This document shows, piece by piece, positions 17,557 through 53,083 of a DNA stretch of 64,000 nt. Numbering within the stretch: the stretch's first letter is position 1; each line of letters begins with the position of its first letter. The stretch lies in the NCBI RefSeq assembly GCF_058153355.1, contig NZ_CM177019.1; one strand, written 5' to 3'. The translations under genes were made by a program, and so were the position numbers. The notes below the pieces were generated by a model, which saw nothing but the letters and a program-made list of their open reading frames with translations, was not told the DNA's origin and did no database searches.

Positions 17557-17590
17557 ACCAAAACCGGCTCTGTCAGGAGCCGGTTTTTAC
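17557..17590. terminator. bidirectional intrinsic terminator between gudD and barA
   Basis: AAAACCGGCTC-TGTCAG-GAGCCGGTTTTT hairpin flanked by A-run and T-run between convergent genes. Confidence 0.75.
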
Positions 17591-24002: not shown

Positions 24003-24097
24003 TCTTACATAGCTGGATATGGCGTCAGCCGTATCCAGCGATATCTTTTACTCGAAGGTATTACACCTGACAGACCCGCAATTTTCAGGACATTCTA

Positions 24098-26826: not shown

Positions 26827-28140
<1,314 letters not shown>

Positions 28141-28167
28141 GTCTGACTTTATCTGATTTAAAAATGC

Positions 28168-28181
28168 CAGCCTTCGGGCTG
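28168..28181. repeat. IS4 target-site duplication, left copy
   Basis: CAGCCTTCGGGCTG immediately left of the IS4 left IR; identical copy at 29609-29622. Exact TSD length (12-14 bp) is ambiguous because the target is itself palindromic. Confidence 0.8.
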
Positions 28182-29608
28182 TAATGCCGATCAGTTAAGG
28201 ATCAGTTGACCGATCCAGTGGCTGTGTAAGAATCCGGAAACGCTCACTTGTTTCCGGATTTTTTTATGCACATTGGACAGGCTCTTGATCTGGTATCCCG
28301 TTACGATTCTCTGCGTAACCCACTGACTTCTCTGGGGGATTACCTCGACCCCGAACTCATCTCTCGTTGCCTTGCCGAATCAGGTACTGTAACGCTACGC
28401 AAGCGCCGTCTTCCCCTCGAAATGATGGTCTGGTGTATTGTTGGCATGGCGCTTGAGCGTAAAGAACCTCTTCACCAGATTGTGAATCGCCTGGACATCA
28501 TGCTGCCGGGCAATCGCCCCTTCGTTGCCCCCAGTGCCGTTATTCAGGCCCGCCAGCGCCTGGGAAGTGAGGCTGTCCGCCGCGTGTTCACGAAAACAGC
28601 GCAGCTCTGGCATAACGCCACGCCGCATCCGCACTGGTGCGGCCTGACCCTGCTGGCCATCGATGGTGTGTTCTGGCGCACACCGGATACACCAGAGAAC
28701 GATGCAGCCTTCCCCCGCCAGACACATGCCGGGAACCCGGCGCTCTACCCGCAGGTCAAAATGGTCTGCCAGATGGAACTGACCAGCCATCTGCTGACGG
28801 CTGCAGCCTTCGGCACGATGAAGAACAGCGAAAATGAGCTTGCTGAGCAACTTATAGAACAAACCGGCGATAACACTCTGACGTTAATGGATAAAGGTTA
28901 TTACTCACTGGGACTGTTAAATGCCTGGAGCCTGGCGGGAGAACACCGCCACTGGATGATACCTCTCAGAAAGGGAGCGCAATATGAAGAGATCAGAAAA
29001 CTGGGTAAAGGCGATCATCTGGTGAAGCTGAAAACCAGCCCGCAGGCACGAAAAAAGTGGCCGGGACTGGGAAATGAAGTGACAGCCCGCCTGCTGACCG
29101 TGACGCGCAAAGGAAAAGTCTGCCATCTGCTGACGTCGATGACGGACGCCATGCGCTTCCCCGGAGGAGAAATGGCGGATCTGTACAGTCATCGCTGGGA
29201 AATCGAACTGGGATACAGGGAGATAAAACAGACGATGCAACTGAGCAGGCTGACGCTGAGAAGTAAAAAGCCGGAGCTTGTGGAGCAAGAGCTGTGGGGT
29301 GTCTTACTGGCTTATAATCTGGTGAGATATCAGATGATTAAAATGGCGGAACATCTGAAAGGTTACTGGCCGAATCAACTGAGTTTCTCAGAATCATGCG
29401 GAATGGTGATGAGAATGCTGATGACATTGCAGGGCGCTTCACCGGGACGTATACCGGAGCTGATGCGCGATCTTGCAAGTATGGGACAACTTGTGAAATT
29501 ACCGACAAGAAGGGAAAGGGCCTTCCCGAGAGTGGTAAAGGAGAGGCCCTGGAAATACCCCACAGCCCCGAAAAAGAGCCAGTCAGTTGCTTAACTGACT
29601 GGCATTAC
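28182..29608 (+). mobile_element. IS4 insertion sequence, complete
   Basis: About 1427 bp, bounded by imperfect 18-bp terminal inverted repeats (TAATGCCGATCAGTTAAG at left; reverse complement of the right end is TAATGCCAGTCAGTTAAG) and carrying a single transposase ORF. Confidence 0.9.
28266..29594 (+). CDS. insG: IS4 transposase
   Basis: ORF 28248-29594 trimmed to [16 protein letters not shown]...; 442-aa DDE transposase recognised as IS4 InsG. Confidence 0.9.
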
Positions 29609-29622
29609 AGCCTTCGGGCTGG
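29609..29622. repeat. IS4 target-site duplication, right copy
   Basis: CAGCCTTCGGGCTG immediately right of the IS4 right IR; together with the flanks it reconstitutes an AAAAATGCCAGCC-TTCG-GGCTGGCATTTTT bidirectional terminator hairpin. Confidence 0.8.
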
Positions 29623-29639
29623 CATTTTTTATGGCTGAG

Positions 29640-30545
29640 TTACCAGCGACCGGAAGCACCGCCACCGCCAGAAGAACCGCCACCTCCGCTAAATCCGCCG
29701 CCACTTGAGCCGCCACCGGAAGAGGATGAAGAAGAACCTTTTCTTGAAGCTCTTTCTTTACCGAGCGTCTTGTATTTGGCTCGTAGCTTTTTATTAACGA
29801 TAAGCCAAAAGATAAGCAGCGCTACGATCGCAAAAGGCGTTAACATACCGCAGGCAACGATTAAATTCGTCCATGGTCCTGGCTCGGCAACATAGAGGAA
29901 TACCATCCCGTAAATTGCGGCAGTGAGAGTTATCCAGGGTAGATTCGACGGATCGGTAAAAACAACAAAATATGAAAGCACTGCCAGCAATATAAGTACA
30001 GCAAGCGAAAATGGGATAGGGGGATTGATACTGTAATAATTCCCCCTGCCTTCCGGTAATTCACCATTCATCAGAAGTGCGCCGATATTTTCGCTTGCCA
30101 GTGTTAACCCCCCCATCAGGTCATCACTTTTGAAAGCAGGGATTAATATGTCACGGATAATCTTTGCCGCTTGCAGGTCGGTAACCACCCCTTCCAGCCC
30201 ATAGCCGACTTCTATACGAACAGCATGATCTTCCCAGGCAACCAGAAGTAAAATGCCATCGTTTCGCTGCTTATCTCCCAGTTTCCAGCTATCAAAAACG
30301 CGTGTTGCATATTGTTCAATAGAATCGTCTCCGGTGGATGGCACTATTAATACGGCGACCTGTGCCCGTGTTTTTTGTGTAATATCCTGCAGCTGTTGTG
30401 TCAGTGATTGTTGTTCAGACGTGCTTAAGGTACCAGTAATATCGGTCACCTGTTGGCGCAGCTCCGGCACAGCAATTTGCTGGGCAAGCACAGGAAGGCA
30501 CCATAAAGTGAGTAGAAAAAGGATTATACGCATAACGATCACCAA
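29640..30545 (-). CDS. TPM-domain membrane protein (YgcG-like), paralogue 1
   Basis: 301-aa ORF: signal peptide (MRIILFLLTLWCLPVLAQQ), TPM-type domain (EQYATRVFDSWKLGDK...GILLLVAWEDHAVRIEVGYGLEG), C-terminal TM helices, Gly/Ser-rich tail ending GGGGASGRW. Real start probably the Met at about 30533. Confidence 0.85.
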   Translation of the reverse strand: MVIVMRIILFLLTLWCLPVLAQQIAVPELRQQVTDITGTLSTSEQQSLTQQLQDITQKTRAQVAVLIVPSTGDDSIEQYATRVFDSWKLGDKQRNDGILLLVAWEDHAVRIEVGYGLEGVVTDLQAAKIIRDILIPAFKSDDLMGGLTLASENIGALLMNGELPEGRGNYYSINPPIPFSLAVLILLAVLSYFVVFTDPSNLPWITLTAAIYGMVFLYVAEPGPWTNLIVACGMLTPFAIVALLIFWLIVNKKLRAKYKTLGKERASRKGSSSSSSGGGSSGGGFSGGGGSSGGGGASGRW

Positions 30546-31687
30546 CGGCCGGATGAACTGCCGCCTCCTGAAGAACCGCCGCCACCGCGGAAAGAATTTT
30601 TCGACGAAGAGCGAGAATGAGCATTACGATTCCCCGTTTTCCTGTTGCTTTTATGTCCTGATCCCAGTTTAAGATTGCCAGTAAATTTGGCCACAATGAT
30701 CAGCAGAACGATGCCTGCAATGGTTATTGGGCCGATAAAATGATCAATTAGCCCAATAATTGTTGAGATGAATGCTATATCTTTATTACTGGCGAACACC
30801 AGGCACCATCCCACAACAATTATCAGCAGCACGACAAACAATGAGTTTCGTTCGGATTGAGAAAACTGCTGAGTCGTCTTTTGTTTTTTCACTTTAGCGT
30901 TTTTATTTTGGGGGGCCAGCATCATAGGAAATGCGCGGCATATATTAAAAACTACCGCGAGACGCTGCCAGCAGATTGCTGCGAAAAATAAACTAAAACA
31001 AACGACCGATACCCGCCGAATGATGACATCGTCCTGAAAGGAGAAAAACCAGACCATAGGAGTAATCATCGATATCATCCATATGCCAGGCCCGGGACGG
31101 CTGGTAAATCGCCAGAGGACAACGATGGCAACGATCATCAGTAATGTCCAGGCAAGACATGGCAGCGAGCGTTGCGGATTAGCAAACAGATGATTGGCTA
31201 AAGCATCCAAAGGGCTAAGGTTCGCTTTGATATGGGTAAACTGTGCGATGCTTTCAATTCCCTGCGTTAACCCGGAGAAGAGATTATTTTTTTTGAATTC
31301 CGGTTGCATATGGTAATGAACAATTTGCGCAGCTTGTTCCGGTGGCAGCATCTCTTCCAGTCCATGCCCAATCTTCATTGACGCCAGCCCTTCCGGCCAA
31401 ACGACGAGAATTAAGATACCTTCGCCGTACCGCTTCTCTCCAACAGGTTTCCAGTGATATATCCCGTAGCTTTGCGAGGCTGCAAGTTTAATGTCTTTAC
31501 CCCCAGTGGTCGGCGTTACCAACACGGCCACCTGAAAGTGGTTTTGCTGCTCGAGAGTCTGTAATTGTTGATTTAAAGCAGTTTGTTCTTCTGTCGTTAA
31601 TGTCCCGGTTAAGTCAGTTACTGAAGGCAATTGTTCAGCGAATGCCTGGAAACCACATAGCATCAGAAGTAAGAGAAAAATACGCAT
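30539..31687 (-). CDS. TPM-domain membrane protein, paralogue 2 (extended polytopic membrane insert)
   Basis: 382-aa ORF: signal peptide, TPM-like N-domain (GILILVVWPEGLASMKIGHGLEE), about 4 hydrophobic segments, basic linker, tail GGGGSSGGGSSSGRW; overlaps paralogue 1 by 7 nt. Confidence 0.8.
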   Translation of the reverse strand: MRIFLLLLMLCGFQAFAEQLPSVTDLTGTLTTEEQTALNQQLQTLEQQNHFQVAVLVTPTTGGKDIKLAASQSYGIYHWKPVGEKRYGEGILILVVWPEGLASMKIGHGLEEMLPPEQAAQIVHYHMQPEFKKNNLFSGLTQGIESIAQFTHIKANLSPLDALANHLFANPQRSLPCLAWTLLMIVAIVVLWRFTSRPGPGIWMISMITPMVWFFSFQDDVIIRRVSVVCFSLFFAAICWQRLAVVFNICRAFPMMLAPQNKNAKVKKQKTTQQFSQSERNSLFVVLLIIVVGWCLVFASNKDIAFISTIIGLIDHFIGPITIAGIVLLIIVAKFTGNLKLGSGHKSNRKTGNRNAHSRSSSKNSFRGGGGSSGGGSSSGRW

Positions 31688-31701
31688 TTCAATTCCTTTT
31701 G

Positions 31702-32640
31702 TTACCAGCGCCCGGAGGCGCCACCGCCGCCAGATGAACCGCCGCCGCCGCTGAAATTATCATTGTCAAAAGAGGATGAAGAGGAAGATGACGACGATGA
31801 TGAAGAACGCCTGGAGGCCGAGTTACTTCTTTCGTAATGTGACGGTCGGTTGGCACTGCGCATCGAATCCCGAACCTTTTTGCCGAAGGGGGTAAAAGCG
31901 ATGGCGACAGCCAGGAACGGTGTGGCGAAGCAGAGTAATGTTGCGAGTACTCCCCAGCTTCCGCTGAAACCTGCTATAGGTAAAACAAAGGCCAGTACAA
32001 TAGCTGTGAAGCAAATTAGTCCCAGCGTTTTGACATATCCTCTGGCGGAAATAAAGGTCAGTACTATTGCCCAGACTAACAAAGCCCACCAACCGCTAAA
32101 GGGCAAAGGGTGATCGGTCGGTGTTATCGCTTCTAAATTATTCCCCGTCAGACGATTATCAATATCGCTTATTCCCTTTTGCAAGCCGCCAGCAAGGTCG
32201 CCATTTTTAAATGCCGGAATAATACTGTTGCGAATAATTTTCCCGGACTGCGCATCCGTAATAACGCCTTCCAGTCCGTAACCGATTTCAATACGCACGG
32301 TATGATCCTGCCAGGCGACTAACAGTAGAACGCCATCATCGCGGTCTTTATCACCCGGTTTCCAGCTATCGAATACCCGCGTAGCGTACTGCTCGATGGT
32401 TTCATCGCCCGTTGTTTCAACCACTAACACGACCAGTTGTGCGTGGCTTTTTTGCATCAGCTCTTTAATCTGATTGGTCAACGTATTTACTTCATCGTTC
32501 GTCAATTTGCCGGTTAAGTCATTCACATACCTGGGTGATTCAGGTACTGGAATTTGTATGGCAAACACAGATGAACAAAAGAAAGCCATAAGGAAGATAA
32601 AATTTCGCACAGGACTTCCTCGCTTAATGAGCATTAGCAT
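31702..32640 (-). CDS. TPM-domain membrane protein, paralogue 3
   Basis: 312-aa ORF: signal peptide, TPM domain (EQYATRVFDSWKPGDKDRDDGVLLLVAWQDHTVRIEIGYGLEG), TM helices, poly-Ser tract and tail GGGGSSGGGGASGRW; start overlaps the lemA stop by 17 nt. Confidence 0.85.
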   Translation of the reverse strand: MLMLIKRGSPVRNFIFLMAFFCSSVFAIQIPVPESPRYVNDLTGKLTNDEVNTLTNQIKELMQKSHAQLVVLVVETTGDETIEQYATRVFDSWKPGDKDRDDGVLLLVAWQDHTVRIEIGYGLEGVITDAQSGKIIRNSIIPAFKNGDLAGGLQKGISDIDNRLTGNNLEAITPTDHPLPFSGWWALLVWAIVLTFISARGYVKTLGLICFTAIVLAFVLPIAGFSGSWGVLATLLCFATPFLAVAIAFTPFGKKVRDSMRSANRPSHYERSNSASRRSSSSSSSSSSSSFDNDNFSGGGGSSGGGGASGRW

Positions 32641-33226
32641 TCTGGCTAAAATCTATTGTTGGGGTTTTACTCACAGCGGCGACATCATCCGGCAAATAAT
32701 TTTTCTTCGGTGTGTAATCCATGACTTTTGCGGTTAACACTGCGGGGAATTTGCGGATAGTGACATTATATTGTTCGATGGCTTTAATATATCTTCCTCG
32801 CGCAACGGCAATTCGATTTTCACTTCCTTCGAGCTGTACCATCAAATTTTGATAGAGTTCCTGGGCCTTTAGCTCAGGGTAACGTTCACTAATTATCGTT
32901 AACTGACCGAGAGTGCGAGACACCTGCGCCTGAGCTTGTTGCCAGGTTTGTAATTTTTGTTCATCTCCCGGAGTTTGCTGAAGAGCACTACTGGCGCGAT
33001 TAGCCTGACTACGTGCCAATGTTACGGCTTCCAGTACCTCTTGTTCATGGCTGGAATAACCTTTAATACTGGCGACAAGATTAGGAATAAGATCGGCGCG
33101 ACGTTGATATTGATTTAATACCTCAGACCAGGAAGCGTTAACCTGCTCATCATAGGTTTGAATATCGTTATATCCACAGCCTGATAAATTGAAAATAAAT
33201 ATAATTACGATGAATATTCTGAGCAT
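32624..33226 (-). CDS. LemA-family lipoprotein
   Basis: 200-aa ORF with lipoprotein signal (lipobox LSGC) and LemA-type sequence (RRADLIPNLVASIKGYSSHEQEVLEAVTLARS...); first gene of the four-gene minus-strand cluster. Confidence 0.85.
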   Translation of the reverse strand: MLRIFIVIIFIFNLSGCGYNDIQTYDEQVNASWSEVLNQYQRRADLIPNLVASIKGYSSHEQEVLEAVTLARSQANRASSALQQTPGDEQKLQTWQQAQAQVSRTLGQLTIISERYPELKAQELYQNLMVQLEGSENRIAVARGRYIKAIEQYNVTIRKFPAVLTAKVMDYTPKKNYLPDDVAAVSKTPTIDFSQNANAH

Positions 33227-51259: not shown

Positions 51260-52911
51260 GTGACTTTCTTTGATTTCTGGGGAAAAACCCGACGTGGCGA
51301 GAAAGAGGGTGGCGACGATTATCACCTTCTTTGCTGGCATTCGCTGGATGTAGCCGCGATAGGCTATTTAATGGTCAAAAACAACTGTTTCGGGCTGGCT
51401 GACTATTTTCGTCAATTAGGTTTCGCTGACACGGATCAGGCAGCACAATTTTTCGCCTGGTTGTTGTGCTGGCACGATACTGGAAAATTTGCCCGCTCAT
51501 TTCAGCAACTTTACCTGCACCCACAACTCAAGGTTCCGGAAGGCGCAAGAAAGAATTACGAAAAGATCTCTCATTCAACGCTGGGTTACTGGTTGTGGCA
51601 TCATTATTTAATTGAATGTGAAGAGTTGCTTCCTTCATCTTCACTCTCTTTGCGCAAACTTAAACGGGTAATAGATATGTGGATGCCCGTGACGACCGGG
51701 CATCATGGTCGGCCTCCTGACCGTATCGATGAACTGGACAACTTTCTACCTGAAGACAAAGCTGCCGCACGAGATTTTCTCCTTGAAATCAAGGTACTGT
51801 TTCCGCTCATCGAGATCCCTACATTCTGGGATGATGACGAGGGCGTTGAACTTATAAAACATCTTTCCTGGTATATATCTGCAACCGTCGTACTCGCAGA
51901 CTGGACGGGATCGTCAACGCGGTTTTTTCCACGCGTCGCACATGTAATGGATATTAAAGATTACTGGCAGAATGCTTTAGCTCAGGCTCAAAACGCATTA
52001 ACCGTCTTTCCTCCAAAAGCAGAAACCGCACCTTTCACTGGAATTAACACGCTGTTTCCTTTTATTGAGAACCCAACACCGTTACAGCAAAAGGTGCTGG
52101 ATCTGGATATCAGCCAGCCAGGACCGCAGTTGTTTATTCTGGAAGATGTGACTGGCGCAGGTAAAACAGAAGCGGCGCTTATCTTGGCGCACAGGTTGAT
52201 GTCTGCGGGGAAAGCACAGGGTTTGTTTTTTGGCCTGCCAACAATGGCAACGGCCAATGCCATGTACGATAGGCTGGTAAAAACCTAGCTTGCTTTCTAT
52301 TCGCCACAATCCCGCCCCAGCCTGGTGCTGGCACACAGCGCTCGTTCGCTAATGGATCGCTTTAACGCATCGCTGTGGTCTGGTGATTTTGTGGGGTCAG
52401 AAGAACCGGATGAACAAGCGTTCAGTCAGGGATGTGCGGCCTGGTTTGCTGACAGTAACAAGAAGGCGTTGCTGGCTGAAATTGGCGTCGGCACGCTGGA
52501 TCAGGCGATGATGGCGGTGATGCCGTTCAAACATAATAATCTGCGGCTTCTGGGGCTGAGTAACAAAATCCTGCTAGCCGATGAGATCCACGCCTGTGAC
52601 GCTTATATGTCGTGCATTCTTGAAGGGCTGATCGAGCGGCAGGCGCGTGGCGGAAACAGCGTTATTTTGCTTTCTGCTACGTTGTCTCAACAGCAGCGTG
52701 ACAAACTCGTCGCCGCCTTTGCGCGTGGTGCAGAGGGCCAGCAAGAAGCTCCGTTGCTGGAAAAAGATGATTATCCCTGGCTGACGCATGTCACGAAATC
52801 CGATGTGCATTCGCACCGGGTAGCGACGCGCAAAGACGTTGAGCGCAGCGTGAGTGTGGGTTGGCTTCATAGCGAACAAGAGTGTATTGCGCGTATCGAA
52901 TCGGCGGTAAG
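51260..52911 (+). pseudogene. cas3: cas3 remnant (type I-E HD nuclease/helicase), in-frame TAG at 52286-52288 and 3' truncated at about codon 550
   Basis: Track ORFs 51260-52288 and 52325-52936 are in the same frame, separated by one amber codon; HD motif region (LLCWHSLDVAAIGY...HDTGKF) and Walker A (DVTGAGKTEA) present; reading frame runs directly into CRISPR repeat 1. Confidence 0.85.
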
Positions 52912-53062
52912 GTGTTCCCCGCGCCAGCGGGGATAAACCGTCGACAATGGATAAGTTGACTTCAGGTCTGGGGAGTTCCCCGCGCTAGCGGGAATAAACC
53001 GTGCAGTACGCCTGATGACAAACCAAGCATCGGGAGTTCCCCCGCGTCAGCGGGGGAACTCC
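52912..53062 (+). CRISPR. orphan type I-E CRISPR mini-array (3 repeats, 2 spacers)
   Basis: Repeat 1 52912-52940 GTGTTCCCCGCGCCAGCGGGGATAAACCG; spacer 52941-52972; repeat 2 52973-53001 (2 mismatches); spacer 53002-53033; degenerate terminal repeat from 53034. Spacers are 32 bp; repeat matches the E. coli I-E consensus. Confidence 0.9.
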
Positions 53063-53083
53063 CAGCTCCCATTTTCAAACGCC

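Follow-up and report, generated by a model that had tools for sequence, protein, structure and literature searches.

The window analyzed here, a 64,000-nucleotide stretch of DNA, carries a copy of the insertion sequence IS4 at the very centre of a hairpin shared by two convergent transcription units, eno and an operon of TPM-domain genes. The locus raises the question of how an element comes to lie at so particular a position, whether through the choice of target by its transposase, through selection acting on near-random insertions or through the spread of a single past event, and of what happens to transcription arriving from either side once the hairpin has been split.

An intact IS4 inside a split hairpin

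The element spans positions 28182-29607 (+ strand, 1426 bp) and shares 99.9% identity along its entire length with E. coli features annotated as IS4/insG ("IS4-like element IS4 family transposase" in RefSeq). Its terminal inverted repeats are 18 bp long, imperfect and start with TAATGCC; the left repeat (IRL, TAATGCCGATCAGTTAAG, 28182-28199, + strand) and the right repeat (IRR, TAATGCCAGTCAGTTAAG when read as the reverse complement, 29590-29607, - strand) are equal at 16 of 18 positions. An intact reading frame (28266-29594, + strand; ATG at 28266, stop codon at 29592-29594) translates into a transposase of 442 aa with the Pfam domains PF13006 Nterm_IS4 (3e-33) and PF01609 DDE_Tnp_1 (9e-32), its assignment to the DDE class being made at the level of the Pfam domain. 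The pattern Y-x2-R-x3-E-x6-K is visible in the translation and fits the Y(2)R(3)E(6)K signature as defined in PMC2266710. The exact protein was found in 6926 blocks of the searched public assembly collection, and of 5426 complete E. coli genomes, 2686 contain IS4; among the genomes with any match, the median is one place. Relative to 22 other IS4 copies, the window element differs by 1-8 nt and presents a synonymous G at 29270 that is private to it (0/22 other copies). The original prediction of a complete IS4 is thereby borne out, and the window element is an ordinary, intact copy of E. coli IS4.

On both sides, IS4 is bordered by the sequence CAGCCTTCGGGCTG (28168-28181 and 29608-29621), the two copies being exact over 14 bp with no extension possible on either side. 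Re-read from the sequence, the region 28168-29621 has the layout CAGCCTTCGGGCTG / TAATGCCGATCAGTTAAG ... CTTAACTGACTGGCATTA / CAGCCTTCGGGCTG. The direct duplication that had been predicted is hence present on re-examination, and element and duplication had been located correctly, save that the ends given, 29622 and 29608, were each one base too long. Deletion of IS4 and one repeat yields an empty site of the form AAAAATGCCAGCC-TTCG-GGCTGGCATTTTTT, which is the perfect hairpin that had been claimed for the spacer between eno and the TPM operon, with a 13-bp stem and a 4-nt loop. The restored hairpin starts 20 nt past the eno stop codon (28140), and its other end is 9 nt away from the stop codon of the convergent TPM gene (29640-29642). 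It folds with -20.7 kcal/mol on the + strand (z about -3.5 against shuffles) and with -20.3 kcal/mol on the - strand (z about -5.5), and its tails, T6 and T5, provide one U-run per strand. Judged by its sequence, the restored site carries the signature of a bidirectional intrinsic terminator on both strands. IS4 lies at the centre of this structure, leaving a left half composed of AAAAATGC and the first duplication copy (28160-28181) and a right half composed of the second copy and GCATTTTTT (29608-29630). The target arms read AAAAATGC / CAGCC..GGCTG / GCATTTTT, with AAA and TTT located about 3 bp outside the duplication. The same hairpin is found unbroken in K-12, with a TCCG loop, and is present in nearly all E. 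coli. An Rfam scan of positions 27500-30200 at E<=1 returned no match and hence no known RNA element at the eno 3' end.

The gene to the left of the hairpin, eno (26842-28140, + strand), encodes an enolase of 432 aa with Pfam domains Enolase_N and Enolase_C, and the homologous position is annotated as eno in RefSeq. The convergent operon (29640-33226, - strand) comprises LemA (32624-33226) and three TPM-domain genes (31702-32640, 30539-31687 and 29640-30545), all on the - strand and identified through the Pfam domains LemA and TPM_phosphatase. The gene order of the window, IS4 included, is that of E. coli FDAARGOS_1259; at the corresponding place, K-12 has ygcG and yqcG only. The best matches of the window flanks among complete E. 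coli genomes reach about 98.6-99.3%, which leaves the window without a close complete-genome relative, and by sequence comparison its lineage is E. coli sensu lato. The three closest public short-read assemblies present 99.9-100% identity over 5-7 kb. Since the contigs of all three break at the IS4 junction, with two of them running 23 nt into IRR, these assemblies carry the insertion too, and among the closest public assemblies there was none that is isogenic with the window strain but has an empty site.

Recurrent insertion and the IS4 target rule

The eno-ygcG junction, which the original prediction had singled out for comparison among strains, is an empty hairpin in K-12 and is occupied by IS4 in about 3% of complete E. 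coli genomes (about 160 of 5426). The orientation seen in the window is present at the eno junction of 82 of these genomes. A further 78 match a synthetic eno-side (left) junction of 210 nt for the inverted orientation with a coverage of at least 80%, and all of the 30 matches listed, such as SMS-3-5, are 100% identical to it. The same nucleotide position is thus occupied in both orientations. Nine occupied eno loci were fetched and compared with respect to loop, duplication and orientation. A TTCG loop with a 14-bp duplication is combined with the window orientation in the window itself, CE10, FDAARGOS_1259 and WP7-S17, and with the inverted orientation in SMS-3-5 and MS 21-1. A TCCG loop in the window orientation is found with a 14-bp duplication in 2018-10-1CC and with a 13-bp duplication in AMSCJX02 and WP8-S17. 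Because orientation, duplication length (13 versus 14 bp) and loop haplotype define four states, there were at least four independent insertions at eno.

These data could also be read as the traces of one ancient insertion that recombination later distributed and that was inverted in situ, in which case the eno site would be no hot spot. Most occupied genomes do have the 14-bp duplication in common, the flanks of the site belong to the conserved core genome and recombine readily, and the duplication would survive an inversion mediated by the 18-bp inverted repeats. A single origin does not, however, accommodate the two genomes with a true 13-bp duplication, in which the IS end is intact (TAATGCC...) and the IS4 variant differs from the window copy by 7 nt and 2 aa. 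Nor does it sit easily with the presence of the local loop allele, TCCG or TTCG, in both duplication copies, which matches insertion into different haplotypes. Moreover, inversion across 18 bp with two mismatches is far less likely than re-insertion given the target rule set out below, and other sites, such as yceK/mdoH, are likewise occupied in both orientations. Descent of all eno copies from one insertion is therefore extremely unlikely, and repeated insertion is the reading followed here.

Two further claims of the original prediction do not survive this comparison. The insertion had been put forward as a strain marker, but it is homoplastic, and IS4 at eno/ygcG is unfit as a lone lineage marker because of its repeated origin in both orientations. 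It had also been linked to the accessory LemA/TPM cluster. Since the occupied site is found both with this cluster and in strains with the K-12-type single ygcG, the cluster is irrelevant to the insertion and its proximity is coincidental.

The original prediction took the position of the element for a curiosity, whereas IS4 systematically cuts the centre of sites made up of an A-run, a hairpin and a T-run. IS4 copies were collected via exact-protein look-ups and their empty sites were rebuilt, giving 12 distinct sites from few genomes. All 12 follow a common rule, AAA-N3-(11-14 bp duplication)-N3-TTT, with A at positions -6 and -5 and T at positions +5 and +6 in 12/12 sites; the first base of the duplication is C in 9/12 sites, and its last base is G, again in 9/12. 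Each cut lies 3 bp inward of its A- or T-run, except at one site with a 4-bp spacer, and the duplication measures 11-14 bp, a larger hairpin between the runs going with a longer duplication. At nine of the 12 sites the runs enclose a perfect hairpin and the cut is centred on its loop. Eight of these nine are gene 3' ends: four lie between convergent genes (adhE/tdk, eno/ygcG, rpoD/mug and degS/mdh) and four downstream of mdoH, bamD, typA and aroA. The remaining three sites, two of them intragenic and one in a divergent promoter region, lack the hairpin and keep the A/T arms, so that the preference of IS4 is strong but not absolute. An IS4 target consensus of AAA-N20-TTT was reportedly given by Mayaux and colleagues in 1984.

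The 62.5-kb IS-free window contains 124 AAA-N18-20-TTT sites, of which two are palindromic, namely the eno site and a gudD/barA hairpin at 17561, and the odds of a random insertion being centred on either of them are about 3 in 100,000. Comparison of the 9/12 hairpin sites with this 2/124 background yields a binomial P of about 1e-14, a value that overstates targeting alone, since the sites have been filtered by selection. As a separate observation, no clear IS4 occupancy was seen at the gudD/barA hairpin; the corresponding spacer is about 175 bp longer in most E. coli, and the site is not conserved.

Selection also underlies a different account of the distribution of IS4, according to which the element inserts near-randomly and terminators are a neutral safe haven where copies remain after being purged elsewhere, with no targeting involved. 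New IS4 insertions in mutation-accumulation lines fell half into coding and half into non-coding DNA (4 and 4, n=8; PMC5009759), 2/12 natural sites are intragenic, and insertion between convergent genes could plausibly be neutral. Part of the gene-end enrichment may be survivorship after selection. Selection cannot account, however, for the nucleotide-exact reuse of the eno position in both orientations and in different haplotypes, for the invariant A/A and T/T at a fixed distance from the cut, even at non-hairpin and intragenic sites, or for duplications centred on the hairpin loop. We hence consider it very unlikely that IS4 reaches these sites without targeting.

The bases across the eno cut resemble the IS4 tip, TGCCAG, with both halves perfect (6/6), and on sequence grounds the transposase could reuse its end-binding specificity for target choice. 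The further notion that such tip mimicry makes eno the hottest site is not supported by junction occupancy, in which eno (about 160 genomes) is not the commonest: adhE/tdk matches the tip at 1-2/6 positions, yet it is occupied in 1137 genomes, which also weakens the case for a reuse of end-binding specificity. The eno site (6/6, 82+78 genomes) and typA (0/6, 15 genomes) complete this comparison, in which occupancy is confounded by descent.

Transcription at the ends of IS4

Beyond the insertion itself, the original prediction had suggested that the split could change the eno 3' end or allow read-through. The hairpin is indeed split: what incoming polymerases encounter after insertion falls from about -20 kcal/mol to a 5-bp stem of -8.2 kcal/mol, as in the left half reached by eno transcripts, or -7.3 kcal/mol, and the U-tract is gone. 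Rightward transcripts leaving IS4, in turn, encounter nothing more than a 5-bp UUCG hairpin and, behind it, GCA-U6. On this basis one might expect termination to be abolished, so that the highly expressed eno transcript would continue through IS4 and past it, or transcripts of IS4 and of the TPM operon would read out, with a measurable alteration of eno or TPM expression. An IS4 insertion in the pheST attenuator, attributed to the same 1984 work of Mayaux and colleagues, is said to have raised downstream expression, and is counted here in favor of read-through.

The ends of IS4 themselves speak against such an outcome, as both present strong hairpin and U-run structures that face inward, 25-85 nt from the junctions. 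The left-end hairpin (AAGAAUCCGGAAACG...UGUUUCCGGAUUUUU at 28228-28263, with U7; 28228-28265 in all, + strand) lies directly before the transposase ATG, has a 15-bp stem with -18.8 kcal/mol (z -5.5) and faces toward read-through from eno; the terminator scan overlooked it because the extended stem swallows the T-run, and it was checked by folding instead. The right-end hairpin (GCCAGUCAGUU-AAGC-AACUGACUGGC, then UCUUUUU; 29568-29603, - strand) was identified by the terminator scan with 11 pairs, folds with -18.7 kcal/mol (z -6.1) and faces toward transcripts of the TPM operon. Since terminator-like hairpins with U-runs face inward at both ends, read-through would be less likely than had been proposed, and incoming eno and TPM transcripts probably stop within the ends of IS4 instead of continuing through it. 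The expected shift in 3' ends would be about 25-85 nt, placing the eno end about 85 nt and the TPM end about 50-70 nt beyond the old ones. In addition, the insertion touches no coding sequence and disrupts no gene, and its persistence in either orientation in the complete genomes described above speaks against a large cost. Of the effect originally envisaged, the split of the hairpin stands, and a loss of termination that measurably alters eno or TPM expression appears unlikely, some antisense transcription from IS4 into the TPM gene being what the weak outward-facing hairpin may permit.

Within the left end, a consensus scan identified a promoter-like site, TTGACC-16-(TG)AAGAAT (28206-28233, + strand), in a search that returned two sites against 1.1 expected by chance. 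Its -10 element sits in the left arm of the left-end hairpin. A transposase mRNA initiated at this candidate promoter might start at about 28240 and, lacking the left arm, might escape the hairpin.

Interpretation and comparison with known systems

As an explanation of the locus as a whole, we hold with considerable confidence that IS4 arrived by cut-and-paste insertion into its preferred kind of target, and that this preference makes it target terminators recurrently. An active-looking copy would have moved by ordinary cut-and-paste into a GC-rich palindrome located between an A-run and a T-run, where a transposase dimer, presumably reading both symmetric arms, would make two symmetric cuts, each lying about 3 bp within its run, and thereby generate the 14-bp duplication. 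In enterobacterial genomes, such a signature is in essence that of a bidirectional intrinsic terminator, and this is why independent IS4 insertions recur in the eno/ygcG terminator and in hairpins at other gene ends. After insertion, the inward-facing hairpin and U-run structures of IS4 would take over the function of the host terminator and keep outside transcription from entering the transposase gene.

A more far-reaching proposal, which we put forward tentatively and are inclined to doubt, is that IS4 is a dedicated terminator-homing element that recognizes the arrangement of A-run, GC-palindrome and T-run, cuts it at the loop and swaps in its own inward terminators. If this were true, the insulation of host operons would be preserved and the transposase protected from read-through, which would amount to a safe-harbour strategy. 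The replacement of host terminators by those of the element, an idea that the data support, would help explain its low-copy persistence at little cost. No explicit description of such a strategy for IS4 was found in the searchable literature, and our literature search returned no paper tying IS4 to the eno/ygcG site or stating terminator homing explicitly.

The element, its arm-specific targeting and its insertion at eno are all already in public data, the same insertion being present and annotated in about 160 complete E. coli genomes, and the window itself presents a standard IS4 at a typical IS4 site, with little consequence. What is added here is the 12-site target rule, the recurrence of independent insertions at one nucleotide and the inferred buffering of termination by the IS4 hairpins. 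In the form AAA-N3-(11-14 bp palindrome)-N3-TTT, the rule is clean and testable. For annotators, IS4 is to be expected at gene-end hairpins, and short-read contigs break there.

The closest known system is IS4 of E. coli (insG), the type element of both the IS4 family and the IS4 subgroup. Its length, inverted repeats and 442-aa transposase are as in the window, with no substantive difference apart from the private G at 29270, and the 14-bp duplication falls inside the 11-14 bp range of E. coli IS4 copies elsewhere. Target-arm specificity has been described for the IS4 subgroup (De Palmenaer et al., PMC2266710). With regard to the target, bidirectional terminators are reported to be common where two genes converge (Ju et al. 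2019, cited by bioRxiv 10.1101/2022.10.23.513370), and the restored eno site likewise lies between convergent genes, its symmetric hairpin being bordered by an A-run and a T-run. According to the same preprint, however, its class of bidirectional terminators is unlike intrinsic terminators, whereas at eno both strands present a textbook intrinsic hairpin.

Among other members of the IS4 family, IS231A inserts into targets with a short palindromic consensus and bent, AT-rich arms. The IS231A consensus is GGG-N5-CCC. IS231A differs from IS4 in this consensus, in host range and in duplication length, and it has no terminator association. The target of IS231A is symmetric and its arms are sequence-specific, as for IS4 (cf. 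Hallet et al.). ISRm22, also of the IS4 family, presents target-arm conservation of the same kind as the IS4 subgroup, according to De Palmenaer et al. (PMC2266710), and has been described as homing, together with other IS elements, to REP hairpins (Tobes and Pareja 2006, PMC1525189). These elements, which include IS1397, ISKpn1, IS621, ISPpu9/10 and ISRm22, home to extragenic, hairpin-forming REP repeats and so avoid genes (PMC1525189). They belong mostly to other transposase families (IS3, IS110), and their targets are repeated REP families that are recognized by sequence. The targets of IS4, in contrast, are unrelated, single-copy terminator hairpins that have in common only the A/T arms and a GC-rich palindrome.

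Resemblance between the eno target site and the IS4 tips

The bases that span the IS4 cuts, from -3 to +3, resemble positions 4-9 of the element's own ends (TGCCAG). Across the 24 half-sites, obtained by taking the two cuts of each IS4 site separately, the tip match averages 3.1 of 6 positions versus 2.1 in shuffled sequences, a comparison in which half-sites lying within palindromes are not independent of each other. At the eno site, where the bases across the cuts lie within 28162-28175 and 29614-29627 and the IS4 tips at 28182-28190 and 29599-29607, both halves match at 6/6 positions, so that the empty site, with IS4 and one duplication copy removed, reads AATGCCAG...CTGGCATT and resembles two right-end (IRR) tips facing each other. 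Occupancy of the IS4 sites does not track the tip-match score.

Other IS4 target sites

Besides eno, the only site in the window fitting the palindromic IS4 target rule is the hairpin CAAAACCGGCTCTGTCAGGAGCCGGTTTTT (17561-17590) between the convergent genes gudD and barA, which is unoccupied; the gudD/barA spacer is approximately 175 bp longer in most E. coli than in the window. Among 5,426 complete E. coli genomes, the adhE/tdk terminator carries IS4 in one orientation (the junction found at loci L001, L017 and L019) in 1,137, an occupancy far above that of every other site checked. The adhE/tdk insertion is either an old, inherited one or the mark of a much hotter target.

Variable intervals in the window

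The locus 3' of eno (29640-33226), compared with locus L023, is polymorphic in E. coli. The last TPM gene of the type seen in the window, which belongs to an operon of LemA and three TPM genes, occurs in the window and in 767 of 5,425 genomes. In K-12-type strains this position holds just two genes, ygcG and the small yqcG. Between relA and mazG the gap spans only 95 bp (24003-24097) and lacks the mazEF toxin-antitoxin genes, which are present there in most of the best-matching E. coli genomes (two-piece matches, approximately 635 bp longer) and are also absent in a few strains, including FDAARGOS_1259. The interval 51260-53064, between cysH and iap, looks like the remnant of a type I-E CRISPR-Cas locus: it contains a 342-aa ORF with only the HD domain of Cas3 and three degenerate repeats GGTGTTCCCCGCGCCAGCGGGGATAAACCGT (52911-53064). 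Relative to the 24.5-kb query, the matches in the best-matching reference genomes extend over roughly 8-10 kb more, and the matched stretch includes annotated cas3 and casA.

Dam sites at the left end of IS4

The left end of IS4 has three GATC (Dam) sites in its outermost 35 bp (28182-28216), placed around the left inverted repeat (IRL) and a predicted -35 element, and no such site is present at the right end. This arrangement suggests that IS4 may be subject to methylation control, as are IS10 and IS50.
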